Source of the DNA: Glaucostegus cemiculus
Taxonomy: Eukaryota
NCBI GenBank assembly: GCA_976551045.1
Contig: CDPCPM010000029.1
Span: forward strand, 11,780,001-11,844,000
Direction of reading: 5' to 3'
Length of the DNA stretch: 64,000 bases
Part shown: piece after piece, positions 1 through 41,200 of the stretch
Layout: every line of letters begins with the position of its first letter
Position numbering within the stretch: position 1 is the stretch's first letter
Notes under the pieces: model-generated
What the model was told of the DNA's origin: nothing
What the model saw: only the letters and a program-made list of their open reading frames with translations
The model's database searches: none
Made by a program: the position numbers and the translations under genes

Positions 1-255
1 TCCCCCTCCCCCACCCACCTACCTTCCCCTCTCACCTGAACCCTATCACCTGCCTGCATGTGCTCCTCCCCTCACCCCCCCCCCCCTTCTTATTCTGGCT
101 TCTACCCTCTTCCTTTCCAGTCCTGATGAAGGATCTTGGCCCGAAATGTCGACTGTTTATTTCCCTCCAGAGATGCTGCCTGACCCGCTGAATTCCTCCA
201 GCACTTTTCGTGTATTGCTCCAGATTCCAGGAACTGCAGAATTTCTTGCGTCTCC
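1..255 (+). mobile_element. Penelope-like (pLTR-derived) short repeat with hammerhead motif
   Basis: Similar to 24940-25102 and 2978-3070. Contains CAGTC-CTGATGA-AGGATCTTGGCCC-GAAATGTC-GACTG. Confidence 0.7.
118..155 (+). ncRNA. Minimal type I hammerhead ribozyme motif (ACGU palindrome decayed to AUGU)
   Basis: Stem I CAGTC/GACTG, core CTGATGA (123-129), short stem II, GAAA (143-146), UC cleavage site (149-150). Confidence 0.65.
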
Positions 256-2504
256 GCTAAGGTTTAAGGTCAGCTGTGATCTAATTGAATGACAGAGCAG
301 GTATGAGGGGCAGATTCACCTGCTCGCCCTTCTATTTCTTATGAACCTTCCAGAATCCTATCAGTTTGCCGGCAATTATCTTGGTGAAAGCTTTCAGTTG
401 GTATACTATCTTTAATTCAGTTCTCTTATTTGCTGCTCAGGACAAATTCTTTTGTTCTTTAAACCTTTAGTTACATTGTGAGATCCTGATAATGGCTCTG
501 GTGTAACCCTTTGTCTCACTTCCTTCCCATCAGAACCATATCTCATCCTTGCCACAAGAAAAATTGTCAACAAAGTACACCAGAAGCACAAAAAGTTTCC
601 CTGTTTAAAGAAAAACAAGTTGCATCAAAATCACGATGATGCTGGAGGAACAGCTTGCTGAGTTCTTCCAGCACTATTGTGTTTTTCATCTAGGTTCCAG
701 CACTACAGTCCTTTGTTTCTCTTGCATCAAAATCAAATGGGCAGTAAAAGCACGTTTTCAAACTAAATGTTGTAGATTAACCATTGCTTCACAGATATCA
801 GATTCTGAGAAGTATTATCTGATACCATGATAATGCAGCAAAACAAATGTAGTCATAATAGCATCAGAAGCAGGGAGGTCTGAAGCAAGCCTCAAGGTTT
901 GAATTGAAATATGTGGGTTGGGGGGGGGCAATTAAAATTGGATGAATGAAGATTTCTCCCCCTCCAATTCTGTCTTGCCTTTCCTTCATGAACCATACTA
1001 CGTCTGCGCTGTATCCTATAGAGCCACAGTGTAAGAAACGCAAGGCGCTTTCCTAACCTTGCCATGTGTTAGGGCAATCCTCTCAATGCAAGCAGTATCA
1101 ACACCACACCTGCACCACTGGAGCCTGACTTCCCACCTTCTTTCAGACCAGGACTGCTCTGTTGTGCAATAAGAACAACAACAAGGTTTCTGTCACTGCC
1201 ACAGTCCATCACAATCACCACAGCTCCAATCCCTAAATTTTGATGTCCTCTCACGTTCCTGGGACAGCTAAACATCTACTTAACTCCAACCTCAAATATT
1301 TACTTTATCACTTTGCTCGTTGCCCAACATTTTGGAAAGTAAGAAAGAAGCTTGCTACTTACTTGCACATTACATAAGGCAGAACATCATTCACTATCAA
1401 TCTTCACAATGTAATAAAATCCTCGAATATAGTCCATAGAGCCTGAAAGTCTAATACAATCCCATTGTTCCTTTACTGCCCATGAACATCCTGTTTTTAA
1501 CCCTTTTGAGATCAAGGCTTAGCAATCCAAGGTTTCAAAGTCCATTTTCTTGGATCATTTTCTGATGTAAAACCCCCTCCCATCCCTCTCCCCTGCTCCC
1601 TAGCTCCGGTCCTACCATGGCTGGTGTTGTTCCCAAACCCATTAGGCACCTGTGAAGATTGGATCTCTTGCCTGAGTAAGACTCCTGCCTCATCCTGCTT
1701 CTAGCTGCTGCTTACTTCCCTCTTCCCATTCCAAATAGAGTCCACAAAAATTCTCCTCCCATCATGTTCAAGTTACCAAGATGTTGGCCTTGGTGCCTTT
1801 ACTACCAAAGGTCCTCCAGGTCCTTACCAAAGGCCAGCCACCTTTTAAAGAAGGTGAGGCATCTTCCACCCCACAGAGCTGGAGCAGAAGCAAGTTATCC
1901 TTAACGGTGAGGAGCTGGCTAAAAAGAACAATCAAACCACTTCATCCCTCGCCCACTGCTCTGTTACCTAACCGCACCTCTAGTACAATGCCATTCTGCT
2001 CAGGAAGAAGAGTATTCATTGCTGCGCAAATATGTAATAATAATCAGGGTCGCAGGTGCGCAATGTCTATGGAGCCAGATTTAGTTTGAGCTGAATATAT
2101 TGGGAATATAATGTTTCTAGAATACTATGTAATAAAATGTTGTTTGACTAAATTACATCAGATTGATCACCTTGATAATTAGGTTGTACATTGCTGACAA
2201 TGAAACAGTGTATGCTGTGACTCCTTTTCTCCCTTTGGCAAAGTGATCAGTTGTAAGGCATCCCCATCTCTGCAATTCCATATCCATGGTAACTGTTAGA
2301 GATACTTTATGTTGCCAACGCTTCAGTTGATATTGTAAGTTAGTGATCAATCTTCATTTGTGAACCTTGTAAGTGTTGCTAGATTGAACAGTCGAGGTCA
2401 GCCCTGCTCAGCATAATCCTGGATTTAACCAAAAATCAGGTTTTTCTGAGTCACAGGCTGGTGATGATGATCACAAGCCTTATTCTGGTAATGGTAGTTG
2501 CTCA

Positions 2505-2670
2505 TAAGATGCTGGAGGAACTCAGCGGGTCAGGCAGTATCTGTGAAGTAGACAGTCAGCGATCGAGGTTGAGATCCATTTTCCTTCATGGAAGCTGCCT
2601 GACCCACTGAGTTCCTCCCATATCTTGTGTGTTGCTCCAGCTTCCAGCATCTGTAGTCTCCTGTGTCTCC
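2505..2670. mobile_element. Degenerate foldback copy of the Penelope-like repeat
   Basis: Inverted arms ggaggaactcagcgggtcaggcag and ctgcctgacccactgagttcctcc. Confidence 0.65.
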
Positions 2671-2852
2671 ATTTGGATCACTACTGCCCTCTTTCTCCTT
2701 CCTTTTCAAATAAAGGTGTCTGTGTGAACCCCCGTGCTTCTCTTGTGACTCTGCTTGAGATTGGCAGGGTTGTACAATTTAAGAGCAGAGCACTTAACTT
2801 CTGAGGGATAAGATAAAGTTAAAAAGAAAAAAAGTGGTAATATGTAGATGCT

Positions 2853-3072
2853 GATACAAGACTGCAGATGCTGGAAATCTGGAGCAACACACACAAAATG
2901 CTGGAAGAACTCAGCAGGTCTGACAGGATCTATGGAGGGAAATGAACAGTCGACATTTCGGGCCGAGACCCTTCATGAGTCCTGATGAAGGGTCTCGGCC
3001 TGAAACGTAGACTGTTCATTTCTCTCCATAAATGCTGCCTGACCTGCTGAGTTCCTCTATGTTTTGTGTGAA
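2853..3072. mobile_element. Foldback Penelope-like repeat with roughly 90-bp inverted arms
   Basis: 2889-2976 is the reverse complement of 2984-3070, centred on cttcatgagtcctgatgaag. Confidence 0.75.
2978..3013 (+). ncRNA. Minimal type I hammerhead ribozyme motif, core intact
   Basis: AGTC-CTGATGA-A-GGG-TCTCGG-CCT-GAAA-CGT-A-GACT. Stem I AGTC/GACT, palindromic ACGU, UA cleavage site. Confidence 0.7.
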
Positions 3073-3344
3073 TGTGTAGATGCTGAAGTGTTCTTGGATA
3101 TACTGAATCTAGGGAACTGTAGCCTGATTTGGTTGCATTATACACTTGTGCGAATGGCTAAGCATTGTATATACATTTGTTTCGGAGTTTAATGACTGAG
3201 CAGAATCTTAACCCCACCTTCTCACCTGGGCCTGTGATTGGTTGACTTCTGCAAGGTGTGAACTTGATGAGTGAGGTTTCATTTCATGGTTTGATGCATT
3301 TTGCATGCAAAGCCCCATAATCATTTTGGGAAATCAGTAACATG

Positions 3345-3660
3345 GTTAAGTTATTGGATGAATAGCTAGAGGCCTGTACTGTTGATCAAGAGACATGAAA
3401 TTCAATTCCCAACATGACAGCTGGGGAACTTAAATTTGGGAAATTAAAATGTATAAATAAATCCAGTGTAGGTGATGCTAATGGACTGTTGTAAATCCCC
3501 ATCTGGTTCACTCAGGAAAAGAACTCAGCTGCCCTTACTTGGTCTGAGCTAAATATGACTCCAGACTCGCCAATGTGTTTGATTCTTAAGTACAGTCTGA
3601 GTTGGCCCAGCAAAGTACTCTCATTAGTGGGCAGTTGGGAATGGGCAATAAATGCTATTC
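3345..3660 (+). mobile_element. Old SINE sharing a 3' tail with the LINE family at 12095 (related copies about 18170-18530, 33190-33510 on the - strand, 47800-48030)
   Basis: Recurring catctggttcact...ggtctg...gactccagac...aatgtg..gactctta...gggcaataaatgct. The tail is complementary to the start of 12095-12170 and 61925-61980. Confidence 0.55.
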
Positions 3661-3837
3661 GGATTAAGAAATAAAATTTGCAGTTAGTCTTTTTTTTGCT
3701 TTGCATCTGTGTCAGTGGAATTGTTATTCTGATGCTTTGCAAAGCCACCCAGATTTAATAATTCCAGAGGTGTTCTGCCCTAGTAAGGGGTACGCGGAAC
3801 TTTGGCCTCCACGGAAAATGAAAACCAAAATAAAACC

Positions 3838-3995
3838 CTGCAGATTCTGGAACTCGGAATCAAAAACAGAAAATGCTGGAAATACACGGCAGATCTGACA
3901 ATAAGTCTTCAGCTTGAAATGTTTACTGGTTCTCTTCCCACAGATGATCCCTGACCTACTGAATGTTTCCAGATTTTTCTGGGTTTTTTTTTGTT
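3838..3995. mobile_element. Degenerate Penelope-like foldback remnant (others near 635-725, 5245-5420, 9995-10135, 15030-15235, 22320-22420, 24035-24120, 39965-40075)
   Basis: Recurring aaatgctgga...ctcagcaggtcaggcagcatctgtgg motif and its reverse complement. Confidence 0.55.
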
Positions 3996-5429
3996 TTGAT
4001 CTCCAAAGCCATGGGCAAGTTGGCACATTCCTCCTTTTTTTTCCTTCAAACAAAAGATAGAAATTGTCTTCCATTTAGGGTAATATGATCTTGGGAGAAC
4101 CAGGGCTGTTTCCAGCATGAACGCCTTGTGGTCACCACTACTCCTACATTTACTTTGCTTCTGGGCTGATATCAGCAGTGAGGTCATAGCATGTGCGCTC
4201 ATGATGTAAAAATAGCAGAAATCCTGGGTGGGATGGGATGAGGATGGAGGTAGATGGTGGTTGAAAGGGAGATCGGGGTTTCTGGAGATGGGGACCAGAG
4301 ATGTGGGCTTGCTGTGACACTGGCTACCTTCTTCCTCTGTTCCAGGTTACCTGTAGGACACAATGAACCATCTCCTGCCGAACCACCAGCAGATGTTGCT
4401 TCCATTGATCTTGAGCGAATTGTCTGGCATTCCTGAACCCTCCCCAATTTCTAAACAGTAGTCCTCCACTCTCCAACACCAGCCTTCCACTCCACCACCC
4501 CAATAATCCTTTACTACAGTAAGACTTCGATAATCCTACACACTCTGCACTTTGGAGATGCCAGATTAGCACATTTTCCAGACTATTGCATGTTATTCAC
4601 AAGATATTAATAACCCAACATATTTTAATTTCACTTTTTAGATATTAGACAGTATTATGATAAATTTCCCAGTGGACCAAGCTTAAAAGGAATGTGGGAA
4701 ACAGAACCCTACTCAATTGAAAGAGAGCAAGGGAAGTTGTTTCTGTCATTTTTCATTGGAAAGGAAATTGTGAAAGGACTGCCTGACCTGATTTGCTTAT
4801 ATCATTGATAGTCTCAAGAGCAGCACCCGTAAACCTCCTAAAGGAGCAAACCCCAGGGGCTTTCAAATCTGTTGTCTGCCCCCAACATTGATTTGAAATG
4901 AAGCAAATGTTAATGAACTGAATAAATAAGTCTTGCTGTTAAGCCCCAGTCAAATGGATATCTTAACTTTATGGGTCATTGATATTCTTATTTTGAAAGC
5001 GAGTGACACAAGCACGGGTTTCGCAGAAAGCGAGAAGAATTTGTAACGGGGGTGTGTGGCTGGAATGTGATCATCTGTCAGTGAATAAACAAGTCTTACT
5101 GTTAAGCCCCAATCAAATAGATATCTTTCCTATTGGAACTTGGGTGGGTGGAGTGGGGAAGGGGAAGGGGTGGACCTCTTAACTAGCCCACGTTTTCCAA
5201 GTCATGGATTATTCGTCACAGGAAGGAGACTGGGATATAAGAAATAAAACCCAAAAAGTGTTGGAAATGCTCACCAGATCAGACAATGTTTGTGGGAAGA
5301 GAAAGCCATTAACATTTCAGGTCAGAGGCCCTTTATTAGGACTGGAAAAGAGATACAAGTAAGAGAATACAAGTTAGTTTTCAGTAACGGACAATATGGG
5401 GGAGGGATGGAGAAGACAAAGGGAATATC

Positions 5430-6090
5430 ACTGATTTGTTACCTTTTAAAGGCAAAGGCAACTACTGAAAACTATATTGGCCTTCAATGCAAGAGACTTT
5501 GCATCGAGGAGCAAGAATGTTATACTACAGTTACACAGGGTGTTGGTGAAATCACATCTGGAGTACTGGGTGCAGTTTTGATCCCCTAAGCTAAGAAGGG
5601 ATATATTTGCCATAGACTGAGTACTTACCAGACTGACTCCTAAGAAGCCTGGACTTGTCGTATAAGGAGAGATTGGGTTGACTTCGTATGCACTGGACTT
5701 CAAAAGAATGGGAGAAAATCTCATCAAAACGTACAAAATTCTGACGAGGCTCAACAGGTTGGATGTAGAGAGGATGTTTCTGCTGGCTGGGCTGATCTAG
5801 AACTAAGAGTCACAGCTTCTGGGTGATGGGTAAGACACTTAAGACTTGGATGAGGAGAAACTTCTTCACATAGGGCATGGTGAACCTGTGGAATTCTTCA
5901 CTGTAGAAGGCAGTGGAGGCAAAGTCACTGAATATAGTTAAGAAATGGGTAGATTTGTAGAAACTGGCATTAAGCAGTTTGGAAAGATAGCAAACATTTG
6001 GTATTGAGATAGAGAATCAGCACAATTGTATTGAATGGTAGAACAGGCTTGAAGGGCCAAATGACCTATGTCTACTTTTTCTCTGTTTCC
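5430..6090 (+). mobile_element. CR1-clade LINE 3' fragment, degenerate
   Basis: Remnant LVKSHLEYW(VQFW..) frame, ggatgaggagaaacttcttcacatagggcatggtgaacctgtggaatt, and tail gcttgaagggccaaatgacct. Confidence 0.75.
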
Positions 6091-6399
6091 TTACTTTTTA
6101 GAAGGGATCAGAGTTCTCTAGACTGAAGTATTATATGTGTTTCAATTCTTATTTTTTTAGTCCGAGTACAAAGTGTACTGTCTGTTTGATGAGGTAACAA
6201 ACATGAATTCTAAAAAGCTCCATATTTCTAGCATTTTTACTTTCATTTAATTTGGGCACGCTGCTTGTTTAAATTCTGTGTCATTCATCAAAATCCTTTG
6301 TGTTTTCCCTTTCCTAATTACTGCCTTAAAGACTTTTCTTTGGCAAATCTGAAGATTTAATTACCCTTTCTTGGTCTGCAGATATTTTAGAGATTGATT

Positions 6400-6845
6400 T
6401 ATCAGCTATATGACTCACAATGCCATTTGAAAGTGTAACACCATCCGCCAGCAGAGGTCTTTGCATGGCATTTGCTGTCGTGTGTTTACACAAGGCTGTC
6501 AAGCAAGAAGTTCCACATCTCGCAGGCTTCCTGACTAATATGCAAAGTGCTTCTCTGTTCGATGTGGGCGGGAGTTTCTCTCGCAGCCTAAACACGGTCT
6601 CTTTACAAAGTGCAGTTTAAAAGGCTGCTGAAAGTCCGATTATGAAAGGCAAGGGTGGGGAAGTGGGATGATGACCTCATGCATAAGGAAAGCTGGGATT
6701 CGTACAAACTGCTCCATGAAGCTGCAGCCACTTTGTGTTTGATTTAAGTTTGAAAGGAAAGCCCGCTCCACACGTCTGCTCCGTCCAATGTAACTAAAGG
6801 TGTATCCTTTACTTTATGAGAGAAGGGTAGCTGAAAACTTGTGGA
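6400..6845 (+). promoter_or_regulatory. Candidate intronic alternative promoter / 5' UTR
   Basis: Repeat-free stretch before the candidate first exon. Motifs: AP-1 TGACTCA (6411), forkhead TGTTTAC (6483), GC box GGGCGGG (6566) overlapping NF-kB-like GGGAGTTTCT, TATA-like TTTAAAA (6616), CRE-like ATGACCTCAT (6671). Motif evidence only. Confidence 0.4.
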
Positions 6846-6875
6846 ATGTCACCATTGTTCAGCTGGGTGGCTAAG
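6846..6875 (+). CDS. TBC1D1: Candidate alternative first coding exon of TBC1D1 (MSPLFSWVAK), phase 0
   Basis: ggaATGt start with a purine at -3, ten codons, then a near-consensus donor AAG|gtaaga. Phase 0 joins exon 35776 in frame. It sits in apparently non-repetitive sequence. Confidence 0.6.
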
Positions 6876-8398: not shown

Positions 8399-8504
8399 AT
8401 GCTGTATAGAAATCTAGTTGCTCCAGCACAAATTAAAAATGATTTGTGATTTTTAGTAGCTGGGTATGGTGTTGGCCTGACTGTTTTTTTTTTTAAGTTA
8501 TTAC

Positions 8505-9200: not shown

Positions 9201-11714
9201 CTGTGCCTGTGTATTGTTGCGGTCTTACTGCTGTACTACACCTGGTTCAATTTAATAGCCAAATGGCTATTTAAGGTGGAAATTAACAGGAAAGTACAAA
9301 AATACTCCAGTCATGAAAGGCGGTGGGGCAACATGAGAACAAAAACTTATTTTTAAAATAACATATTGAATGTATGCCCCAAGACTTTGCACAAGATGTC
9401 AAATTGAAAAAAAGGGAGAATATTGAAATATTGACTGCATTTGGGAGCACTGGGTCAGCAGGTATATTATTGTACTTTAATGATAATATGTGGTCTCTTG
9501 GGAGTGAGGATGAGTTGCTTCCAGATTTTCTGGTGATAATGTAAAGTAAATTGAGTGTTATCCAGGTCTGAGAAACATATAGGAGAGTACGGATCACTGC
9601 TGCCTGTTAGATTGTGATTTTTTTTTGCCAGTTCTGAAGTTTTGATCTTTAAGTACTTGTTTCCTCAACTGACCAAAGGCTGTGCTGGTACATTGAGGGC
9701 AATGGTAAATTTCATCATCAATGTCTGCCTTCACTGGGAGGTGGCTACTGAGCTAAGTGATGTGGTCTACATTTTCTAGGGTCCAACTGTGAGCCTTTGT
9801 TGTCAGAAAATAAGTGTCCTCTACCAATTTGGCCCTTCTACACCACACATTGTGGTTCCTCATTACATAGGGTTCCTTGTCTATTGAGAAACATCAGTAG
9901 TGTTTTGCTGGGCTTGGGTACTTGAATGGCTGCAAGCAAAAAGAGAGAAAAGCTGAGTGTGAGTGAAGCCAGGAGTCAAATCCTCCAGCAATAAACCAAA
10001 CCTGATGAAGGAACTCGGCAGGTCAGGCAGCATCTGTGGAGGGAAAAAGACAGTTGACGTTGCCGCCTGGCCCACCGAGTTTCTCCAGCAGTTTGTTTTG
10101 TGCTCTAGGTTCCAGCATCTGCAGTCCCTTGTGCCATCAAATTCTCCAGGGTTTTGATGCCTGTTGGGGAAAGGGCAGTAGATATATTGGCCTGGGGCAA
10201 GTGAATGCAGGAGCTTCAGCGTTTTAGTTGGCTTTTGCTTTGCTGGTACTGCTGCTGAAAATCTTGAGATAAAGTTGGGGCTAGGGAAGAAAGGAGCTGA
10301 GTGATTGTTCAATATAAAAGAAGTTAGTTAAGATGTGGAGGAAGCTGGGATGATGAATGAACAGTTGGACAAAGGTTGTGGTGAAAGAGCTGAATGGAAT
10401 TTGTGTTTTGTCTGAGTATTAACATCAAGGATGTGTTTTGCACAGCAGGGGAAGAGGATAAATGTGCCTTCTGGGTATTTTAAGGAAAAGTTGCTAAAAG
10501 AATATAAGTTCTTTATGTCCTTGGGATGTGTAATACTCAATTAATTTTGCTCTATTTCACCTGGATATTTTCAGCAACATGTGGCACTTAGGAGGATATA
10601 ATGAAGTTTCAGTGGAAAGTTAAAAGGCTGGTACCAGAATTCAAAAGGTATAATTACCAACTAAGATTGGATGAAGTAAAGTGTAAGAAAATTTGTTAGA
10701 GCAAAAATGCTGAATTGGTTTGAAAGTCCCATTTCTGTGCTGTAAATTTTCCATCATTCTAGCAGATAGGGCAAGAAGGAAGCCCTGAATTGGTTGGTTA
10801 ATTTGTGGCAGAATTGAACTTTTGTACATGGTGTGAATCATCCTGATATGTGTGGAATCTAAACTTCTGAGGGAATGATCTGCATTGAATGAATATGATC
10901 TCAAGTCTTTTCTGGATGGAGTTGAACTAAGGAGATCCACTTGGGGGACTTTGAATGGGGGAGGGTAAGGGAGTGCGGAAATTCTGAGCAAACTGAAAAC
11001 CACCTTCTCGACTGATATTTTTAGGGAGTGTTTTGAGAGGTTCTCATTGGTTCCCTCTTCTATAAGCAGGAGTTTTGGTGCTTTTTAATCTGGACTTTTT
11101 TTCTTAAAATGTCGAATCCAGAATTCTTGTGCTGCTATTTAAAATTCCTTGTGGCTTTGACTCCTGTCTTAGGCTCTCTGTTGTCCTTGACTTTAAGCCC
11201 ATGATCACCCCCCACACCAGTGTCCCTGTGATTGGCAACTGTGATTTCATTTGCTCCGTTCTGTCTAATTTTCTCTTAAATCTCCATGCTTGCCCATTTC
11301 CCTCTTGTCAAGAATCTGCTTTTAAACAAAAAAACTTGTAACTTTGACCAAATCTCCAAATATCTCTGGCTTTGAAATGTTCACGTATATTGTCACGACT
11401 TTGTGAAGGGCATTAGCATGTTTTCCTGTACTGAAGTGCTACATTGGTGCACCAGTTTGAATTGCCATGGGCGATATTGTTCATTGTGGCATGTGCACTT
11501 ACTGAGGGATTCGAGCTTGTGATCTTTCTTGCCTCGGATGTGGAATCTTTGACTTGTCAGGGCAGGCTGAATTCTCAGCTGCTGATGGAAAATATGGCTG
11601 GAAGTATTCCATTTCTGGATGCTGAAGTGTTACTGAATCAAGCAGTTTAGTCTCTCTGGACAAGCAAACGTGTAGATTTCATATATTTCACTTTTCTTTA
11701 CGACATGAAATTGA

Positions 11715-12010
11715 GCTAAATGCGTCCATGCCAGCTCTGAGCATTCCCATCAGCCCCATTCCTCCACTTACTTTCCTGTACCCTATTCTCCCCCATTTGC
11801 CCATCAACTTCACCCTATTCTCCTTCCACTGGGGACAATTTACAGTGACCTAACATACCTTTTTGAAGTGTGGGAGGAAACTGGAGCATTCAGAGGGGAA
11901 ACCCATACTGTCAGAGGGAGAATGTGCAAACTTTACACAGACGGCACCCAAGGTAAGGATCAACATGGGTCACCCGAGCTAGGTAGCACTGGCTCCAAGT
12001 GTTGCAACAC
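11715..12010 (-). mobile_element. Old V-SINE
   Basis: tgtgggaggaaactggagca...gggagaatgtgcaaact is the reverse complement of the V domain. Confidence 0.7.
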
Positions 12011-13734: not shown

Positions 13735-13984
13735 TTTTTTTTAAAGTGTTTTTTTAAGTTTTATTTACAGCGTGGTAACAGGCCCTTTCGGCCCAACGAG
13801 TCTGCGCCGCCCATTTTAAACCCCCTACCTGTACGTCTTTGGAATGTGGGAGGAAACCGGAGCACCCGGAGGAAACCCACGCAGACACGGGAGAACGTAC
13901 AAACTCCTTACACTCAGTGACGGGAATCGAACCCTGATCGCTGGCGCTGTAACAGCGTCGCGCTGACTGCTATGCTATCGTGCA
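13735..13984 (-). mobile_element. Young tRNA-derived V-SINE (HE1-like) with CR1-type tail
   Basis: Near reverse complement of 53112-53366. B box GGTTCGATTCC on the - strand, V domain, CpGs retained, A-rich tail, possible GATAT duplication at 13730 and 13985. Confidence 0.88.
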
Positions 13985-14677: not shown

Positions 14678-15609
14678 TCCCTGGGAGTTGCTGTGACCGG
14701 TCATTCCACATAAATGAATGGTTTCAACCTTCACCATGTCCTCAAACTCCATCATCTTCCAAGGTATGAAAATGTTGATTCTTTTTTCCAATATTTTGTT
14801 TTTGCTCTTCCTTGGCACTTCCTGCATAAACTTTAACTTTTGATTTGCACATGATCCCTGAATGGATTGAGCTGCTGTATCATCTGCAGTTTGATCAGCG
14901 CACAGGGCATCTTCTCCCCCTGTGAACACGACCGCAGTTCCTGCTTGGGCTCCATTCGGCCTGTATTTTCATTCCCTTCGTGTTTTCTAACTGCGATAAC
15001 CCTGCTTTTCCCGGGACTGATCTGAAGGTTGAAGCAAAAAAACCAGCAGATGCTGGAAATTTGAAACAAACTGCTATAAGTACTCAGCATGTCAGGCAAC
15101 ATTCTTGGGGAGAAAGCAAGTTAACATTTCAGGTCAACAATCCTGTTGATGAACCTGAAACATTGACTGTTTCTCTTTCCGCTGATGCTGCTCTGCTGCT
15201 GAGTGGTTACAATTTTGCTTTTATTTCTGCTCTAGAAATTGGCTGTTTGAGGAGTCAGCATCATGCATTCTGTGCTCTGCTTGTATCTTTAGCCATGGGC
15301 TGTATTGAGTTCATTCTTAATCATCAACCCATCTCTACATGTCTGGATATGATGAGCTCCAAATGAGTTGATCCTGAAGACTTTTGTCTATTTCCTTGAA
15401 TAGTAAAGAAACTGCGAAGAGGTTTGTGTGATTTCTGCCTCTGACTTTGGAACTCGTACTTTATTTCCTCTCAGCTGAAATTTTAGACTACTTTGTCAGG
15501 AGTTTTCCTGTCGGATTTAACTTACTTCCCAGTTACTGAAAGGAGTTCATCCTTTTTTTTCCCAGTCCAAAAAGAATGTAATTAACTTTCTCTTCATCAC
15601 TTGTGCCTT

Positions 15610-20146: not shown

Positions 20147-20458
20147 ATAAGATATCTTTATTAGTCACAAGTACATCAAAACCCACAGTGAAATGTATCT
20201 TTGCATAGAGTGTTATGGGGGCAGCCCGCAAGTGTCGCCACGCTTCCAGCCAACATAGCATGCCCACAACTTCCTAACCTGTACGTCTTTGGAATGTGGG
20301 AGGAAACTGGAGCACCTGGAGGAAACCCATGCAGACACGGGGAGATCGTACAAGCTCCTTACAGGCAGTGGCCGGAATTGAACCTGAATTGCTGGTGCTG
20401 TAAAGCGTTAAGCTGACCGCATCACTACCATGCCTGCCCTTACGCCACCGTGCCTGCC
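20147..20458 (-). mobile_element. V-SINE subfamily with alternative 3' tail
   Basis: V domain and tRNA-like head. Tail reads GTGACTAATAAAGATATCTTAT on the - strand. Same subfamily as 54591-54867. Confidence 0.85.
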
Positions 20459-20849: not shown

Positions 20850-22470
20850 AAGAAAAGGGAAGAAATCCAGTTGGGACCAAAGAGAGGCATAGAGGCAGAA
20901 TACTGAATGAGGATGTTGCCAAAACCTTGGTAGAAGGAGTGAATGCAGGGATAATTAATGGAGTGAAAATTGATGAGAGAAGATTCTAGAAAGGTTGCCT
21001 ATGCTCAAACGTAAACCAGTCACTTGCATTGGATAGAATGCATCCTAAGTTGCTGAAGGAAGTGGGAATGCAGATTGCAGGATGGGTTGCTTTCCTACCC
21101 ACTTATTTGTTACATGGAGGAGCTAGAGGACTGGAAAACTGCAATGCAACACATTGTTCAGCAGGGATTTGAAGAGTGTAACCAGCAGTAGGCTGGTAAT
21201 TTTACCCTTGTTCATGAGGAAGGACTTGTGTTAATAAAGGATAACCAAGTTAGATTTGTTTGACTAAGCTGGGTATTTTTTTCAATGAGACAACAAAGTT
21301 GATGAAGGAACTTTAGTAGAAGTTGTCTCAGATCTTCAAAAGGTATTTGATGAAGTCTCATACAAAGGGGCAGTTAGCAAAACCACCAAGTGGAACAAAT
21401 GGGTCAGTGGCAACGAAACTGGCTTCGTTATAGAAAGTAGAAGAGTATTGGTCACCTGTTTTTCAGGTGAAGGATTGTAGATTGTGTCCCCCAGGGGTCA
21501 GTGCTGGGACTGCTGTTTTCTGATATGTACTAATGTCTTGGATATGGGTATGAAGGGGTAAAATTTTTAGATTTGCTGAGGGCACAAAACCCTTGGTATG
21601 GTTAATAATGAGGTGGTAGTAATACATTGCAAGAGAGCAGTTAGTCTGGCAGAACGGACAGACAAGTGGTGGATGAAATTTAATCCAGGGAGATGTGAAT
21701 TGAAAGATCAAAGAGAAATAATGTAGCAGATGAGGCATAGTTCTACCATGTGTGCCAAAACAGAGACCTGAGCGTCCGTTTGCATAACTGTTGAAAGGTG
21801 ACAAGAGATGTCGAGGTTTGCAAACCAAGAGCTCCTTGGCTTCGTAGACGGGCATAGATTTTGTAAATGGGGAAGTAATATTGTATCTTTATAAAATGCT
21901 GTTGAGACCACAAGTGGAGAAATGTGTCTCTGGACACTAGACATCAGAAGGAGGCAAAGGTCCTGGACAATATGCGGAAGAAATATAAGAATAAAGATTC
22001 TGGAAACGATAAATTTCAGCTGCAGGGCTAGACTGGAGAAGCTGTGGGTGTTCTTGAAGCAACAAAGGTTGAGGGAGATGTATTCACAAGATAATGGAGC
22101 AGAAGCAGGCCAGTCGGCCCATCGAGTTGGCCCATCATGTATTAGATGTAACACACCAGGATCGTGTCTTCCTTGGTGTGGATGAAGGCTGTTCCCATCA
22201 GCGATAGTTCAAAGACTTGGAAAGAAAAATTTAAAGTGATAACCAAAAGATAAAGTGGCGATTAGAAGGGCAATGTAAGGAGTAACTTCTCTGTAGACCA
22301 GAGAACAGTTGTGATCTAGAGTAAAAACTGAGAATGTTAGAAATACACAGCAATTCGAGCAGTATTGTGGGGAGAGAAACCAAGTTAACTTTTCAGATCA
22401 GTGACATTTCATCAGAATTAATTGCCAGTAAGGGTGATGGAGTCAATTGGGGCTTTCAAAATGGAATCAA
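20850..22470 (+). mobile_element. Highly degenerate CR1 LINE (RT region and 3' part)
   Basis: Remnants gatcttcaaaaggtatttgatgaagt (DFQKAFDKV-like), gtcccccaggggtcagtgctgggac (VPQGSVLG) and agatttgctgag (KFADD-like), with many stops. Confidence 0.75.
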
Positions 22471-23249: not shown

Positions 23250-23580
23250 TGGCACAGTGGTGAAGCTAGCAGTGCCACTACCTCACAGCACTAAAGACCT
23301 GGGTTCAATCTTGACCTCAGATGCTGACTGTGTGGAGTTTGCACGTTCTCCCTGTTTCTGCTTGGGTTTCCTCCGGATGTTCCAGTTTCCTCCCACGTTC
23401 CAAAGACGTGTAGGTTGGTAGGTTCATTGGTCAGTGTAAATTTATCCTGAGTGTGTTAGCAAGTGGTAAAATGTGGGGAGAATAATAAAAAAAGAGATTA
23501 ATATAGGATCATTGTGGGTGCTTGATAGTCAGTATGGACTCATTGGGACTAAAGGGCCTGTTTCCATGCTGTATCTCTCT
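23250..23580 (+). mobile_element. V-SINE, full length, older
   Basis: Head ggcacagtgg, B box gggttcaatc, V domain gggtttcctccggatgttccagtttcctcccac, CR1-type tail aaagggcctgtttccatgctgtatct. Confidence 0.85.
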
Positions 23581-24708
23581 AAGAAGCTGACCCTGCTAGT
23601 GGTTTGCACCAACAGAGCTGTGTCTCCTTTCATCTGTAACAACAATGATACCAAAGGAATCATTGAGTCCTGAAGCCCAGTTTTGCTGTAAAACTGTACC
23701 CTCTAGAGCCAGAAGATCCTACTTTTGTGGAGAAAGTAATCATAGCTTTCAATTTTTTTTTTCACCATCTTTTCCATCTGGTGATTTCTGGTTCATTTAA
23801 TCAACTAGTGGGAAAGTGATGTCAATCCAAATTTTTTTAAAAACCTGGAAATAGAGTCATACAGCAGGGAACCAGGCCCTTTGGCCCAACTCTTCCATGC
23901 TGACCATGGTGCCCACCAAGCTAGTCCTGTTTTGCCCACATTTGGCCCATATTCTTCTCAACCCCTCCTACCCACGTACTTATCCAAATGTCTGTTAGAT
24001 GTCAGTATTGTACCTTCCTCAACTACTTCTGTAATAAAAACAGAAAATGCTTGAAAAACTCAATAGGTCAGGCAGCATCTGTGGAGATACAATGGTCAGC
24101 CCTTCCTCTGAAATGGGATGGAGAAAAATACGTGTCGGCCATGATGACTGTTTATCCTTGATCAAAATGGAGAGAAATAAATAAATGCACTCTAAGTTTC
24201 CACCAAGCATGAAATTCCAGGTGCTGTTGATCAGTTTAGTACTCCAAGTATTAATCTCTATTTCATTTAATACAAAGGAATTTTACTCCCTGAAATATTA
24301 CCTATTTGTTTACATGAATGTCAACCGTGATGGCAGAGCACGCCATATTACTACTCCGAAAGGCTGAGAGTGTCAGCCATGGCTTGAAGTAGGTCTCTCA
24401 CCTTGGGATTCCGGAGTCCATGGAGTTTAGTCTCACTTAAGCACAGGATCTAGCCTGGCACATCCAGGCAATACAGAGGGAATGTCGCATGGTCAGAACT
24501 GTCACCATCTGGACAAAACATTACATTAAAGCCCCAGATGTATCTATAATTTGCTTTAGTGTAGTAGCTTAAGGATAAATTTTAGCTAGGTAAACCAGCC
24601 TATTCCTTTGAATATTGTCATGGGATATTATAGGTCCCTTTATTCAAAGATCGTGACTCTATCACAGCAATTCCTCAGCACTGCATTGAATTGCTAACCT
24701 AAATAGAA

Positions 24709-25102
24709 CAGAGACACAAGAAATTCTGCAGATTTTGGAATCTGGAGCAATATACAAAAAGTGCTGGAGGAACTCAGCAGGTCAGGCAGCATCCAAGGAA
24801 GGAAATAAACAGTCAATGTTTTGGGCTGAGATCCTTCATCAGGACTGGAAAGGAAGAGGGCAGAAGCCAGAATAAGAAGGTTGAGGGGGAGGAACACACA
24901 CAAGCAGGGGATAGGGGAGTTCAGGTGACAGGCGAGTCCCACCCACTACCTTCCCCTCTCACCTGGACTTGCCTATCATCTGAACTCACCTATCCCCTGC
25001 CTGTGTGTGCTCCTCCCCCTCCCCCCACCACCTTATTCTGGCTTCTGCCATCTTCCTTTCCAGTCCTGATGAAGAGTCTCAGCCCGAAACGTTGACTCTT
25101 TA
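24709..25102. mobile_element. Penelope-like foldback insertion with 14-bp TSD
   Basis: TAACCTAAATAGAA at 24695-24708 and 25103-25116. Inverted arms about 24811-24943 and 24965-25097, each containing a hammerhead motif. Confidence 0.8.
25061..25097 (+). ncRNA. Minimal type I hammerhead ribozyme motif, core intact, stem II mismatch
   Basis: CAGTC-CTGATGA-A-GAG-TCTCAG-CCC-GAAA-CGT-T-GACT. Confidence 0.65.
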
Positions 25103-25125
25103 TAACCTAAATAGAATGTGTGTTT

Positions 25126-26557
25126 CAGAATCAGAATCAGTTTTATTGTCACAACCATATACATACATAGTATGCATAGGAGCGAGATACCGTCCTCCTC
25201 AGGTGCTCGTCCCATAAAATAACATAACAACCAACAGAGACACACATACACACTTGGCAGAATAAACATTACAACATTAGACATTAAAAGCTACGGAAGT
25301 TAAAATTAAATTATTACGCAGATTAAATTAAAAATGGCCGGTGAATAAATAAATAGTTATTAAAGTGAACGGGCTGGTGTCGGGCATTTAAAGTGCTGGT
25401 GCATTTCTGTGCACCTAGCATCTCTTAGTGTTGACAAAGGAAGATGGAGGGATGAGAGAGTTTGCAGTTCTGATGGCTTGCGGAAAGAAGCTATTGTTCA
25501 GCCTGGTCGTTCTTGCCCTGATACATTTAAGCCTCCTCCCTGATGGCAAAATTGTGAAGAGGTGGTGGGAGGGGTGAGAAGGGTTGGCCATTATGCTTTT
25601 GGTCTTCCTCACACAACGGTCCTTGTATATGTCTGCGAGGGAAGGAAGCGAGACACCTATGATCCACTCCGCAGCCCTAACTATCTTCTGGAGGGACTTC
25701 CGCCCAGCAGCTGAGCAGCTTCCAAACCAAACAGTGATACATTGAGTTAGGATGCTCTCAATGGTCCCCCTGTAGAAGGTTTTCATGACGGAGGGATGGG
25801 GGTACGCTTTCCTCAGTCTCCGCAGGAAGTAGAGGCGTTTCTGAGCTTTCTTCGTGAGGGCCGTAATGTTGGTGGACCGGGTCAGGTCGTCGGTGATGTG
25901 CTCCCCCAGGAACTTGGTGCTGCGTACTTGTTCCACAGCAGACCCGTTGATGGTCAGCGGGGTGTGCAGACGGTGACCCCTCCTAAAATCCACTATCATC
26001 TCCTTGGTTTTATCCACATTCAAGGAGAGGTTGTTGTCATGGCACCACACGGCTAGTTGTTTCACCTCCTCTCTGTAGTCCGACTCATCGTCATTCGTGA
26101 CAAGACCCACCACTGTGGTGTCATCGGCAAATTTAACAATGCGGTTGGAGCTGGATCTGGCCTCACAGTCGTGAGTCAACAAGGTGAACAGGAGCGGACT
26201 GAACACACAACCCTGTGGGGAGCCAGTGCTCAGTGTGATGGTGCTTGAGGTGTTTTCACCAATTTTGACTGACTGCGGCCTGCAAGTTAGAAAATCCAGT
26301 ATCCAGTTGCAGAGAGGAGAGTTAGTGCCCAGAGCGCTCAACTTCCTGATAAGCTGTTGCGGGATGATGGTATTGAAAGCGGAGCTGAAGTCGATGAATA
26401 GCAGTCAGCAGTATGAGTCCTCCTTCTCTAAGTGATATAGTGCAGAGTGCATGGCAGAGGAGACTGCATCATCGGTGGACCTGTTTGCCCGATAAGCATA
26501 CTGATGAGGATCCAAGGATGGGGGGAGGGTGGCTCTAATGTGCTTCATAACTAGCCT
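25126..26557 (-). mobile_element. Rex1/Babar LINE, 5'-truncated, with RT domain and 3' UTR; young
   Basis: RT motifs [52 protein letters not shown] and [15 protein letters not shown]. (TTCTGA)n tail. TGTGTT(T) duplication at 25119 and 26558. One in-frame TGA at 26405-26407. Confidence 0.93.
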
Positions 26558-33824: not shown

Positions 33825-33921
33825 GTGCAACAAACAATCTGCTGGAGGAACTTCACAGGCCGAGCAGCATCTGTGGTAAAGGAATTGTCGACGTTTCGGG
33901 TTGAAACCCTGCATCAGGACT
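33825..33921 (-). mobile_element. Penelope-like remnant with variant hammerhead (33887-33921)
   Basis: The minus strand reads AGTC-CTGATGCA-GGG-TTTCAA-CCC-GAAA-CGT-C-GAC. Confidence 0.65.
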
Positions 33922-34139
33922 TGGGCCATAAGGTCCCTGTGCCTAAAGAAATGACCCTGATGCAAAACTAACTTCATAGTGGATCAGTTGAGGCCAGGGG
34001 TCAATGACACTTTCCAAACACTGCATTGATAAAGGAGGTTGTCGCAGCATCTGAGGTGCCCCATTGGCCAATTAGGCCCTGGATGGCTTGACTGGGCTCC
34101 AGATTAACTCTTTAAGCAGGGATTGTTTTCTAAAGTAAT

Positions 34140-35775: not shown

Positions 35776-36303
35776 GTCCCTGAGATCATCAATACCATCC
35801 GTCAAGCTGGGAAGACTGCCTATCAGGAAGAGGTCCAAATCCGCATACATGATGATGATTCATTTGCTCAGAAGTATGAAGTCCTCTTTGTTGGGAAGGT
35901 AACGGTGGCCCATAAGAAAGCTCCTCCAGCACTGATTGATGAATGTATTGATAAATTCAACCATCTCCTAGAACACGATGACGAGGAAAGGAAAAGAGCA
36001 GCCACAGAGAAAAGGTTGGAGAGACCGCGGACAGAGAGCTCGTCGTTGTTACGTTCCAAGCTGTCAATACCATTGTCGCAGAAGAGAAACAAATCTGCTC
36101 CTTGGCTGTCTGTTCAACATGAACCTCCAGTTACACCACCACAGAGTACTTTGGAGAAATGTAAATCGCTGGACGTGAGCAGCGCTTTGAACTCTGATGG
36201 AGCAGGGAGTGGTGACTCAGTTGAAGCCTTGAAACGTGCAGCCAGTATGCCCAATTTTGTGCAGCCAACAAACATGAAGGCAAATAGGACAATGCTGTTC
36301 ACG
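35776..36303 (+). CDS. TBC1D1: TBC1D1 internal coding exon, 528 nt, phase 0-0 (end of first PTB domain, start of second PTB region, phospho-linker)
   Basis: Acceptor ttatttcctccag|GTC and donor ACG|gtaatg. Translates VPEIINTIRQAGKTAYQEE...FAQKYEVLFVGKVTVAHKKAPPALIDECIDKFNH...VQPTNMKANRTMLFT, matching recalled mammalian TBC1D1 VPEIISSIRQAGKIARQEE...VTVAHKKAPPALIDECIEKFNH...NRTMLFT. Confidence 0.96.
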
Positions 36304-39300
36304 GTAATGTCTGGTTGATCTGTGCAATTCAGCTGTACCTTTGTCTCAATGAATCCTTTAAATTAGTAATACCAAAAGGGCAAGTGTCAACTACTTTTTT
36401 ATCTGCAGGTGCAAAATGGTCATTGTAAGTACAGTAAATGAACCAAATATTCTCCTGCCGAATCCCTGGCTTTCAACCACACCTGGGACCATGCTTGATT
36501 CTAGAGCCCTGCTATCAGGTTATGATTTAAGTTCATTACCTGTTCATTCAAGTTGCTGGTTCATTGCAACCCAGATTCCCTCTTGCAAGAGATGAAGAGG
36601 CTTCCGTGCTGCTCTGCAAGCTAAGTAGAGAGATCAGCTTGCACTTATCTGTGTGTTCAGTGATTTAGTTGTAAATGGATGGTGCGTTGAAGCCAATTCC
36701 CAAATCTCTGGGATTTATCAGTGCAGCTTGCATTTATTACCTTACAAGCTATCTGGGAAGAGCAATGTGTTTGTTTTTGGAGTGTTTTGTTCCAGTTTTA
36801 CTATTATTTTTAATACTAGTTTCAAATAGTAAAATCTGTTGTGGATGACTGTCAAACCAAATCAGCCAATTATTGTTAACTTTCTGAATACTTGAGACTA
36901 ACTGCACTTGTTCAAATGTGGAGGTTTTTTAAAATTAGGTTCCCTGTTATGCACTGGGACAAATAGGCCTCATCATTATGTTTGCTATTAAATTACATAA
37001 ATCAAGAAATTGACTCAAACTGATTAGAAAACAATGTTATGAGCAAAAGCTATCAACTTCAGATTAATTAATGTGATCAACAAAGAGCAAATATGATCAA
37101 TTTCAGATTAATTGTATGGAAAAGATAACAGGTAAAGGGAAACATTCTGACTAGGAGTCTACCCCAAGAGTCTTTGAGTAATAAAAAGATCAGGCAAGTG
37201 GAGGAGCAGCCTTGCAATTTAAATAATCATTGGTGCAGAAGAATAACCTAACAGGGAGAAGTGAAAGGTTAACCAGGATTCCTACTGTGATCACCATGGT
37301 GTGGCAGGAAGGCTATGCAAAGAGACATCAAGATGTGTGGCTGGCCAAATAAAATATGACCGTAAATGGATAGAAATTTGATTGCTGCAAATGGAATGAG
37401 ATGACATTTAAAGAGTGAGAGGAGGAGAAAGAACTGAAGATGAGACACATTAGCATCACCACAGTTTGAAACAAGTTGTTGCTCAAGCACAATGTGCTGA
37501 AGCTTGAGTTTTAAATGTTCTGATTCTATAGAAAGTTACTTTTACAGGAAACTAGCGACTAGTCCAGTTTGCCATGCCCCTTCGCACATAATATGTGCGG
37601 CACCTTTGCTGGTCTTCCTTTTTGAATTTTGAGAGTTTCTTCTTGCCAGTTTTGTTATGTGGTGACTTGTGTGAAAAGATGGTTTCACAGCTGGATGGAG
37701 TTGCAGCCTCTTTTTTTATGTGGTCAGAATGACACACTAAATCCAAGCCAATCAACAAACCATAAGAGGACCATATCTGAGATTCATCAGTACCCACACA
37801 TGTATGTTTCCACAATGTTGCTGTAGGGTGCTTGAAAGTAGAATGTAAGCAGTCTATGGAACTCTTTAGTTAATTCTCTGCAGCTGTATAAGGAATCTGG
37901 GAAATTGAGTTGGAAAGGATTTCAAAGACTCAATTCCTATCACCAATGAGTAATTTCTGATTGTTGAATCATATCCTCCCCCTGTCTCCCCCTGTCTCCC
38001 CCTGGTGCCTAATCAAGAATTTGTTGTGACAGCTTTGTTTTCAACTGAGAATTACTTTATATATCTGCATTCTGATAGTTAGTTACTTTAGTTTAGCAAA
38101 CCAGAAAACATTGCTATCTTTTTGACTTGTGTTGAGACCTACACTGAATATCAATTTACTTGTTATTGCCTAATATGGACATCTGTGTTTAGTAATGCAG
38201 CAGTTTTAATAGTTAATGCGTTGCATGTTAGAACATAGAACAATACAGCACAAGAACAGGCCCTTTAGCCCACAATGTCTGCACCAAACACAAGGTTGAA
38301 TTAAACTAAATCTCTCCTGCCTGTACATGATCCATAGTTGCTTCATTCCCTCCATATTCACATATCTAACAGCCTCTTAAACACCACCACCATATCCGCT
38401 TCCAGCACTACAGCTGGCAGCTCATTCCAGGCACCTACCACTCTCGGTGTAAAAAAAAGTTGGTGTTTTTTACTTTATTCATACATTTTTAATTTTTAGC
38501 TAAATGTTTTCATGTCCAAAGCTTTAGTTTCACATTAACGCAATTAGCTGTCCCTATATTTTAGGCTGATGACAGCACCACATGATGTTGCTCCATTCAT
38601 TCTGAGACCCTCCTTGGTCTCTTACCAGATTGTGACTCTGCTGTCAGATCCACAGGGTGAGCAGACGGTAGCTACAGCAAGTTTTTGTGTTCCTCTTGGG
38701 ACCCAAGGATAGAGAGCCTTCGGTTAAAGCTGTCCAGCAAACACTTAGCAGGCAATTGTTTTCCTCCATGTTGCTTAGGTTTGAGATTTGTTGGCAATGG
38801 AACTCTGGATTCTGCATTCCAAATTTTTACTGATAACAAACAGAATGGTTTCACACTGATATTTGGTGTGAAACCACAGTCAAATTCACAATTGGTGCAT
38901 TGACACAGATCAGATTATAACAACTGCAAAATGTGACCTGTAGTGTGCCAGCCATAGACAGTTGATTTGTCAGTTTTGTTTATTTTAAAAACAGGTATGT
39001 TCTCATCAATTGTTATAGTAATTTTGATCCTTACAAATCTCCAGAGCTTTGCATCTCCTGGGCTCTCCTATCAGTAGCCAGCACCCTCCAAAATTTGGGC
39101 ATGTTGCTTCCCTCTTTTGTAATTTTCTTCCCTCCACCCCAGTGGTCAGTATCACGCAAGCATTGGAGGTCACAGTATTTCTGTATGAATCCATGAATTC
39201 ACGAGCACACGCAGTACTTTTAACAGTCCACTGGAAGGAACTGTGAAATTCCTCATGGAGTTACTTTATTTTGTGTCTGAGTTCACTCTTTGTTCATCTC

Positions 39301-40289
39301 TAATCCTGGAATTTGTCTTGAAGTTTGACATTCCAGTGCTCCCATTGGCTGCCCTCCCAGTTTCCACCATCCATAAACCCAAGCTCATCCAAAATTCTGA
39401 TTGCAGCTTCACTTTACAGAAAATCACGATGTGTAACCCCCCCCCCCCCAAGTAATGTGAGGGTCGCCTGTATAACTTATGGACTCAACCTCCACAATTA
39501 TTTGTGTTGACACTTCTTTCGTGTCTCTTTTCCTTCTCCCTCTTTCCACCCCTCCACCCAATTTGTTTTTGCTTTACGTTTCTTTCCTTTACTCCTCACT
39601 CTATTTTGTGTGAACTGGGTGCCATTGCATGTGATTAGTTGTTGCAGGAAAAAGACTGGCTATCAGCTGGTGGCAGAATTTAGGGTGAGGAGAGTGGTTT
39701 AGCTTCCCCGTCCCTCACATGTCATCTCCTGGTCCATGTCTGCTCTGAACCTTTAGTTGCCCAACACCTATCCCTTGCATTAATCCCCACATTCCCGTTC
39801 TTACCCCACCCCTTCCACAATGAACTACCTGTTCAAATCCATATCCTGTCTTCCTCCTTACTCTTCTGCCCCCTTTGTAAGCTTCCACCACCCGCCCGAC
39901 ACCTATGCCTCTGCACCCACCTGCGCTCTTTCTCAGATCCCAATGTTGACAGCTATAGAGAAGTAAGAAACTGCTGATGCTGGAAATCTAAGAGAATATT
40001 GTCAGGACTACTTGGCATGTTGTGCAGTATCTGCAGAGAGAGAATGTTTTGGGTCAATAACCTTTCATCAGGCCTGGGCAGAGTTTATAAGAAAACTTTA
40101 AGTAATGGGGAAAGGGAAGAGAGAGTAAGGGGATGACTGTCTCACTCCTCTGATCTCATTCATCTTTGTCTGCTTGCATCTCCTCTGGGCAGATAGCGTA
40201 CAGCTAAAATCCTTCACCTTCTGTCCTCAGTCAGCACCACCACCATTTGCATAACTTTGACTTCCTTCGTCTCCACCCTATCACAAAAA

Positions 40290-41040
40290 TGAGAACAGAC
40301 CAGAAAATAAGAGTAGGCCACGTGGCCCTTCGAGCCTGCCCTTCCATTCAATATGATCATGGCTGATCTGCCCCAGGAATTCCTGTGCCAGTTCATCATG
40401 TCTCTCCGTTCCCCGATCTTTACTAAACAAAAATTTATTTACCTCCTCTTTAAATCCCTTCAGTGATCTGGCCTCTGCAAGCCTCTACGGTAGAAAATTC
40501 CAGAGGATCAGCACCCTCTGCTAGAAGAAATTTCTATGTACCTGAGTATTAAATGACTACCCGCTCTATGTTGTAACCATGTATTCTTGTTCAAGATACT
40601 CCTGCTCTTGGAAGCATCTCTGCAGTTGTGCCTCCTAAGGTTCTTGTATGTCTCAATAAGATTGCCTCACATTTTTCTAAACTCCAAAAAATACAGATCC
40701 AACTTATTTTGCCACTCATGATAGGACAACCCTCTCATCCCAGGAATTAGTCCAGTGAATATTTTTGTTTGACTGCCTCCAGTGCTTGTATGCTCTTTAT
40801 TAAATAGGGGAACAAAACTGTGCACGGTACTCTGCATATGGCCTCACCAGCACCCTGTACGATTGTAACAAATCTATTTCTAAACTCTGATCCCCTTGCA
40901 ATAGACACCAATATGCTTTTTGCCTTCCTATTTACTTGTTGTATCTGCCTGCAGACCTTTTATGGTTCATGCACAAGAACCCCTGGATCCCCCTATATTC
41001 ACTCATTTGCAATCTCCCCCCATCTAGACATTCTCTTTCT
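40290..41040 (-). mobile_element. CR1 LINE 3' fragment
   Basis: gagtaggccacgtggcccttcgagcctgcccttccattcaatatgatcatggctgatct is a CR1 tail in reverse, followed by degenerate ORF2 C-terminus. Confidence 0.78.
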
Positions 41041-41094
41041 TCACTCCTCTGCCACTTATCTGCAAATTAAAGCACAGTTGATTTCTACCTTTTC

Positions 41095-41200
41095 GTGTAT
41101 TTTGATGAAGGGTCATTGACCTGAAACGTTAACTTAGTTTCGATTTCCATAGATACTGTCTGACCTGCTGCGTATTCCCAGTATTTTTTGTTTTTATTCC
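41095..41200 (+). mobile_element. Older Penelope-like remnant with degenerate hammerhead
   Basis: TTGATGA-AG-GGTCA-T-TGACC-T-GAAACGTT-AAC, followed by the ctgacctgctg..tattccca motif. Confidence 0.55.

Follow-up and report, generated by a model that had tools for sequence, protein, structure and literature searches.

The window analysed here (64,000 nucleotides of Glaucostegus cemiculus, contig CDPCPM010000029.1 of assembly GCA_976551045.1, positions 11,780,001 to 11,844,000 of the forward strand) covers part of the gene TBC1D1 and is scattered with copies of a dispersed repeat that carries a small hammerhead ribozyme motif. Nine coding exons of TBC1D1, from 35776-36306 to 59194-59457, were located on the plus strand by protein matches. 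The gene assignment made in a preliminary description of this DNA is borne out by the exon at 59194-59457, which matches TBC1D1 of cartilaginous fishes, with Pristis pectinata as the best match (91%). The bases 1-35775 are presumably intronic, since the N-terminal 125 residues of the long isoform find no match in the window. An additional TBC1D1 exon, at 61218-61439, is matched by some isoforms (Mobula, Amblyraja) and not by the two Pristis isoforms tested. The copies of the repeat all fall outside the nine coding exons.

A minimal hammerhead in a dispersed repeat

Read from 5′ to 3′, the motif comprises a U-rich flank, a helix I of 5 bp, the sequence CUGAUGA followed by one extra base, a helix II of 4-5 bp, GAAA, a palindrome of four bases that takes the place of helix III, the UH and an AU-rich flank. 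Judged from its sequence, this is the anatomy of the minimal type I hammerheads (min-HHR) that Cervera and de la Pena (2014) described in the pseudo-long terminal repeats (pLTRs) of metazoan Penelope-like elements (PLEs) (PMC4209133). The preliminary description had recognized this anatomy, and each element of the consensus published in the supplement of PMC4209133 has its counterpart in the window: the type I order, a helix I of 4-5 bp, the extra base between positions 9 and 10.1, the G10.1-C11.1 pair, the palindrome at 15.1-16.1 without a loop 3, and the U-rich and AU-rich flanks. The window also resembles the published PLE hammerheads in their arrangement, that is, mostly single dispersed motifs with some opposite-strand pairs 100-700 bp apart, whereas the short stem II (4-5 bp) and the lack of a linked open reading frame (ORF) set the window repeat apart from them. 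No chondrichthyan rows were found in the examined part of that supplement, or by a term search of two of its files. Hammerheads in Penelope ends are already well described, and the motif itself is unsurprising.

All six motif copies named in the preliminary description were recovered, with coordinates that were exact or off by 1-4 bases. Specifically, sense copies lie at 118-155, 2977-3014 and 25061-25098, with a degenerate one at 41098-41137, and antisense copies lie at 33885-33922 and at 24810-24847, where the G12>A change is present as claimed. The predicted cut sites at 150/151, 3009/3010 and 25093/25094 agree, by index count, with the positions given before. Some details have to be amended: the copy at 118, whose stem I has 5 bp, reads AUGU rather than ACGU in helix III, and a mismatch leaves it three of the four pairs of stem II; the copy at 33885 carries A9>C; and the 36-nt pattern originally proposed retrieves five copies with 1-3 mismatches, versus none in 100 shuffles, with no exact match among the five. 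In addition, a fourth full-core copy, absent from the earlier list, is found at 22380-22419 on the minus strand, and the remnants formerly put at about a dozen correspond to the 15 repeat loci counted in the window.

A descriptor of the structure, which required a full core, 4 bp or more in stem I and UH, found three matches, versus a mean of 0.04 in 100 Markov controls. An iterated profile hidden Markov model gave 23 matches at E<0.05, of which 22 reached E<1e-3, and the reversed window yielded none; two of the 23 stretches overlap, their locus being palindromic, and together they fall into the 15 loci, for a total of 2,384 bases. A covariance model built from 12 motifs retrieved those 12 and two partial ones at E<1e-5, three weak matches (E 0.3-0.6) being disregarded. 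Of the 20 matches (E<=5) that an Rfam scan of the window returned, none is to a hammerhead family; they are microRNA models attracted to the inverted pairs described below, every one of them under its gathering score. The value of the present observation lies in annotation, as a very abundant ray repeat goes unflagged by Rfam, and in two side leads taken up below, a possible silencing of the ribozyme by inverted insertion and a candidate splice acceptor in helix I.

The core (CUGANGA...GAAA...UH in type I order) is free of defects in four of the 12 aligned copies, namely the sense copies at 118, 2977 and 25061 and the antisense copy at 22419, and the remaining eight motifs have at least one core defect. 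All three full-core sense copies carry a further flaw in a stem or in the palindrome: next to the departures described above for 118, the 2977 motif has a G10.1-U11.1 wobble as closing pair, together with a GUA triplet, and the 25061 motif has a stem II mismatch, together with a GUU triplet. The extra base after position 9 is present in 12 of 12 copies. The 10.1-11.1 pair is GC in four copies, GU in five and AU in two, and is unpaired in one, and the palindrome at 15.1-16.1 reads ACGT in four, ATGT in five, ACAT in two and AAGT in one, ATGT and ACAT being CpG-decay forms of ACGT. Paired cells of the alignment amount to 69% in helix I, 85% in helix II and 76.7% overall, versus 21-47% in slid registers, the structure being derived from the same sequences. 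Agreement with the majority reaches 139/155 cells in core columns versus 911/1192 downstream (Fisher p 8e-5, with cells that are not independent), which argues that the core was retained while the subfamilies diverged, and the features of the motif are kept in the correct order across three subfamilies. The three core Gs are kept in 33/41 cells, that is, no better than the downstream Gs (88/110), as fits decay after insertion. Two-sided changes occur in four of the nine stem pairs among the 12 decayed copies. The copies at 33885-33922 and 62740-62778 belong to a subfamily in which position 9 is C and the next base A; since two copies have it in common, the C is probably a variant of the parent ribozyme rather than a product of decay.

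Inverted pairs, tails and target duplications

The 15 loci consist of eight head-to-head inverted pairs, six solo copies and one copy that runs off the window; the inverted-pair architecture had escaped the preliminary description. The copy at the edge (1-255), which includes the motif 118-155, is the longest sense copy, pLTR-like and tailed, with its 5′ end and any inverted partner lying outside the window. The longest pair (24709-25102) unites the antisense motif 24810-24847 and the full-core sense motif 25061-25098, and another pair, at about 2855-3074, contains the full-core motif 2977-3014 and is tailed on its left arm only. The pair at 2500-2671 has a tail on the right arm only and has mostly lost its hammerhead. 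An old pair at 3830-3992 is tailed on the left arm and has a degenerate motif (G8>A) on the right one, and the pair at 62668-62840 likewise has a tail on the left arm and a degenerate motif on the right. At 9985-10135 the tail is on the right arm and there is no hammerhead core, and at 15030-15225 the arms are joined within stem II, the left one being tailed. The remnant at 620-735 combines a weak, short antisense arm with a tailed sense arm, without a hammerhead.

Regarding the solo copies, 5243-5356 is antisense and tailless, with both G5>A and G8>A in its motif; 22315-22420, antisense, holds the full core at 22380-22419, with weak stems and a broken palindrome; 24030-24105 is an antisense remnant of only the downstream part; 33825-33923 is antisense and belongs to the second subfamily, with the motif 33885-33922; 39965-40082 is antisense, tailed and affected by G12>A; and 41098-41213 is a sense copy of the third subfamily, with C3>U and a stem I down to two pairs. 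In other words, five of the six solo copies (5351, 22419, 24105, 33923, 40081 and 41103) are antisense to TBC1D1, a proportion that is not significant (p 0.11); this antisense excess may hint at selection against exposed sense copies.

Seven of the pairs fold at z-scores from -2.1 to -20.4 relative to shuffles, the eighth, at 634-720, being weak (z -1.5, 12 aligned bases). An extra tail of 35-45 bp is found on exactly one arm in all seven pairs that have two outer ends (p 0.008; read by eye), and still in six of six when the weak pair is excluded; in the remaining pair, at 24695-25116, the tail is on the left arm and the right arm stops just past helix I. Low-agreement loose ends at 24754-24762, seen in all four of the DNA runs described below, fit a second class of ends. 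Three pairs are enclosed by direct repeats of 14, 12 and 14 bp (620-633 and 722-735, 2843-2854 and 3075-3086, 24695-24708 and 25103-25116; null of 0.0005 each for 12 bp), and a single duplication around both arms argues that each such pair arose in a single event. No empty insertion site was recognized among 15 of 282 joints in contigs of these runs. The junctions within pairs fall before, inside and after the motif, three arms reach about 105-115 nt upstream of it, and one leaves the window. On the whole, the copies display variable 5′ ends and two kinds of 3′ end.

This footprint corresponds to the layout reported for PLEs, with inverted head-to-head pLTRs, a one-sided tail of 30-40 bp and a duplication of 8-10 bp (PMC3846280; PMC8557442). 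In particular, the window repeat shares with the endonuclease-positive (EN+) Penelope of Adineta vaga, and with PLE insertions in general, the head-to-head pLTRs, the optional tail on one arm, the single duplication around the insert and the 5′ truncation (PMC3846280; PMC8557442). It differs from the Adineta element in keeping pLTR ends only, in the length of its duplications (12-14 versus 8-10 bp) and in its tail of about 35-45 rather than 30-40 bp. In PAc, a Poseidon element of Anolis carolinensis, the tail is accounted for by two start sites of the reverse transcriptase (RT) (Frangieh et al. 2024, PMC11167929), and PAc resembles the window repeat in that its pLTR contains a hammerhead followed by two alternative 3′ ends, by which a tail is defined. 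The ORF of PAc starts in stem II, whereas the candidate ATG of the window repeat lies about 20 nt past helix I and is not tied to an ORF. The assignment to PLEs consequently rests on the motif and on the insertion footprint rather than on an ORF, and the repeat, known from pLTR ends alone, is not assignable to a PLE clade such as Poseidon or Neptune.

A further comparison concerns the animal non-LTR retrozymes, which form head-to-tail tandems with a ribozyme in each unit (PMC7229834; bioRxiv 10.64898/2026.07.22.740005) and have been reported in one chondrichthyan (bioRxiv 10.64898/2026.07.22.740005). The window repeat has in common with them a type I hammerhead, the absence of coding sequence and a relation to PLEs (Cervera and de la Pena 2020; Li, Clavereau and Pollet 2026). 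Unlike retrozymes, however, the window copies are solo or inverted; the motif occurs in none of the 12 tandem arrays of the window and no head-to-tail unit is present there, so that the term retrozyme-like, used in the preliminary description, is not appropriate to the copies of this window. A literature search found no paper describing this ray repeat family, which the supplements of bioRxiv 10.64898/2026.07.22.740005 may nevertheless list, and a term search of bioRxiv 10.1101/2025.06.08.657570 found no mention of Penelope.

Abundance, age and behavior in transcripts

The abundance of the repeat was assessed on contigs of four DNA runs (four of 13 listed), from four organisms, placed on the region 24300-25500 at 80% likeness. 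The contig records amount to 51,591, 51,172, 77,308 and 35,970 per run, the count of the first run including a neighboring long interspersed nuclear element (LINE). Relative to the unique flank, the summed depth of the hammerhead bins is higher by a factor of 4e4-1.1e5, a ratio that is not a copy number and reads only as very high abundance. Accordingly, the proposal that the family is abundant in elasmobranchs finds support both in these runs and in repeat-derived peptide present in gene models of Mobula and Hypanus. At 24832, where the window base breaks stem II, 93-95% of the depth has the pairing base.

As for its age, the family is old and decayed in the window, with arms that are 71-92% alike within pairs. 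In another organism, one contig spans the unique flank and the adjoining 40 bases of the arm of the 24695-25116 pair, with 30 differences in 450, and such a common flank-to-arm junction means that this insertion is older than the split between the two organisms; two other junction contigs, reaching the arm by only 24 and 9 bases, were left out. Directly after the 14-bp duplication of the same pair lies the LINE fragment mentioned above, at 25120-26404 on the minus strand (RVT_1 and ALKBH8_N, 329 aa open). The 3′ part of this fragment reaches very high abundance in run X1 and is almost missing from X3 and X5, and the element looks like a young lineage-specific expansion.

Because of the head-to-head geometry, a transcript that enters a pair from either side contains the antisense arm before the sense arm. 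Folding predictions place 73% of the bases of the 2977 motif and 94% of those of the 25061 motif in pairs with upstream sequence, at 2947-2979 and 24810-24847, respectively, with a stem I probability near zero. The duplex with the own arm is predicted at -51.7 kcal/mol for 2977 and at -63.8 kcal/mol for 25061, and the ribozyme helices at -1.6 to -7.2 kcal/mol for stems I and II and at -1.7 kcal/mol or weaker for the intermolecular helix III. The 118 motif is predicted to pair with antisense copies of the same intron at -22 to -62 kcal/mol.

A second property of the motif that may matter in transcripts is a polypyrimidine tract that ends in AG within the 5′ strand of helix I (AG at 119-120 and at 25062-25063) and resembles the host's own splice acceptors. 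In a C-type lectin of Mobula hypostoma, two of three annotation models pass from lectin to repeat sequence at the residue after the helix I AG, in the expected phase, the repeat forming an alternative last exon in these two models; the third M. hypostoma model and the M. birostris protein continue into the normal last exon. Moreover, the parkin models X1 and X3 of Hypanus start with repeat-derived residues. The candidate acceptor echoes the intron end of the Penelope element of Drosophila virilis, which is located at the 5′ end of helix I (PMC4209133).

Origin of the repeat and competing explanations

On these grounds, the repeats are likely the 5′-truncated and decayed pLTR ends of a very abundant elasmobranch PLE. 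The ribozyme was probably of use to the parent element, and the intronic copies are predicted to lack its activity. PLEs have been reported in the whale shark and in the elephant shark, and the window copies likely represent a new elasmobranch member of the known PLE hammerhead kind, preserved as old, mostly silenced fragments; the intronic copies are probably ordinary genomic fossils. By analogy with PLE biology, the GIY-YIG endonuclease would nick the target and the RT of the element would initiate at either of two positions 3′ of the hammerhead, one yielding copies with a tail and the other copies without. The RT would terminate prematurely and in many cases append a second, inverted copy during the same insertion, so that a single target duplication would enclose the two arms. 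As for the parent element with its tandem pLTRs, the two motifs would join through the ACGU palindrome and cleave as a dimer, probably assisted by a protein. In the window pairs, the antisense arm, being made first, is predicted to capture the sense motif in a long hairpin, by which the folding of the ribozyme would be blocked.

A number of results weigh against this interpretation. No Penelope RT or GIY-YIG ORF is visible, as had already been remarked: a Pfam scan of 150 of the 184 stop-to-stop ORFs of the window detected none, the only RT being the LINE-type one at 25415-26404. Two long copies of the repeat are open in the same frame, and protein searches with this open frame returned no RT or GIY-YIG among 322 candidates and none among 15 hits, P0074 and P0081 among the latter being unrelated chance matches. 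Scans of metagenome contigs, viral contigs and prokaryote genomes with the repeat pattern gave no matches. On this point, truncated copies are not expected to keep an RT or GIY-YIG ORF. Stem covariation, which the preliminary description had proposed as a test, does not rise above shuffles (score 0.268, reached by 147 of 500) in an alignment of only 12 decayed copies, and five of seven isolated 38-mers show no folding advantage over shuffles, a result that is unremarkable at this motif size and lends the interpretation no support. Duplications above 8 bp are found at none of the other 11 of the 14 loci tested, and the starts of 10 of the 20 arms fall no more than about 7 bases from helix I (model columns 111-124), a clustering that random truncation does not explain. 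Furthermore, the folding model behind the predicted silencing ignores the contacts of the hammerhead core, the gap in energies being large, and the upstream context of the 118 copy lies outside the window.

The clustering of arm starts speaks for a different kind of parent, namely a short (about 130-250 nt) non-autonomous element tipped by a hammerhead, transcribed by itself and copied in trans by a PLE protein, the copies being full-length in the manner of short interspersed nuclear elements (SINEs). Such an element would also agree with the summed depth, which is several-fold lower immediately 5′ of the motif in each of the four runs, and with the absence of an ORF remnant beside any solo copy; moreover, non-autonomous PLE derivatives are known (PMC8557442; bioRxiv 10.64898/2026.07.22.740005). 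We nonetheless consider it unlikely, in view of the three arms that extend far upstream of the motif and of the pair junctions that fall on either side of it as well as inside it. In addition, the summed depth declines in steps from the 3′ end toward the 5′ side, as 5′ truncation would give, and the clustering itself may partly stem from a profile seeded on one subfamily. The non-autonomous family of the preliminary description is not demonstrated, since the variable 5′ ends, inverted pairs, tails and duplications are the usual leftovers of truncated ordinary PLE insertions. Inverted arms flanked by direct repeats could also bring to mind a hairpin DNA element resembling miniature inverted-repeat transposable elements, or some unrelated repeat, with a hammerhead-like core that is incidental; Rfam finds no hammerhead, covariation is not significant and a link to an ORF is missing. 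However, the arms are asymmetric, with a one-sided tail, their junctions vary, six copies are solo and the duplications measure 12-14 bp, while the published features of the minimal hammerhead are all present in their proper order and persist in three subfamilies, which makes an incidental core very improbable.

A last alternative concerns the fate of the copies rather than their origin. According to the preliminary description, several monomers end up in one TBC1D1 pre-mRNA, where they could pair with each other; sense monomers meeting in this way would form double hammerheads, cut the intron and possibly release small circles. In fact, the three full-core sense copies could share a helix III of 4 bp, and some cleavage in vitro, though low, has been observed for minimal hammerheads joined as dimers or trimers (PMC4209133). 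Against this, the folding predictions have two of these copies sequestered by the upstream arm of their own pair and the third paired with antisense copies of the same intron. Distances of 2.9 and 22 kb separate the copies, and none of them is free of a stem or palindrome defect. Furthermore, cleavage by the PLE ribozyme of Anolis required its protein, and RNA-seq showed no ends at the position where it cuts (PMC11167929). Pairing between sense monomers in the pre-mRNA is thus probably not taking place, as far as the folding model can tell, and cleavage of the intron by them appears highly unlikely. If intronic monomers were shown to cleave each other, this would represent a new route by which transposon relics cut a host pre-mRNA.

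Returning to the reading of the repeats as truncated PLE ends, an inverted insertion may silence the ribozyme, and this would help explain the tolerance of many intronic copies. A broader possibility, offered tentatively and with considerable doubt, is that elasmobranch genomes hold about 10^5 hammerhead-tipped Penelope ends in which the head-to-head geometry disables both the ribozyme and the splice acceptor of helix I. On this view, introns would tolerate inverted pairs, which come as preformed double-stranded hairpins. Solo sense copies, in contrast, would face negative selection or be turned into exons, and use of the acceptor in helix I would rearrange the ribozyme.

The window contains other repeats as well. 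A region upstream of the copies 5351 and 41103 that they seemed to share was considered as a part of the hammerhead family and turned out to consist of two LINE 3′ remnants instead. These decayed remnants, at 5468-6106 on the plus strand and 40276-40920 on the minus strand, are 59% alike over 668 columns, and each lies near a hammerhead repeat; we take them to be CR1. A second dispersed family, unrelated to the hammerhead repeat, has about six copies of 100-280 bp (11856-11960, 13752-13983, 20147-20428, 23296-23428, 53115-53355 and 54591-54866) and is probably a SINE. Finally, a perfect tandem duplication with two copies of 80 bp is found at 56936-57095.

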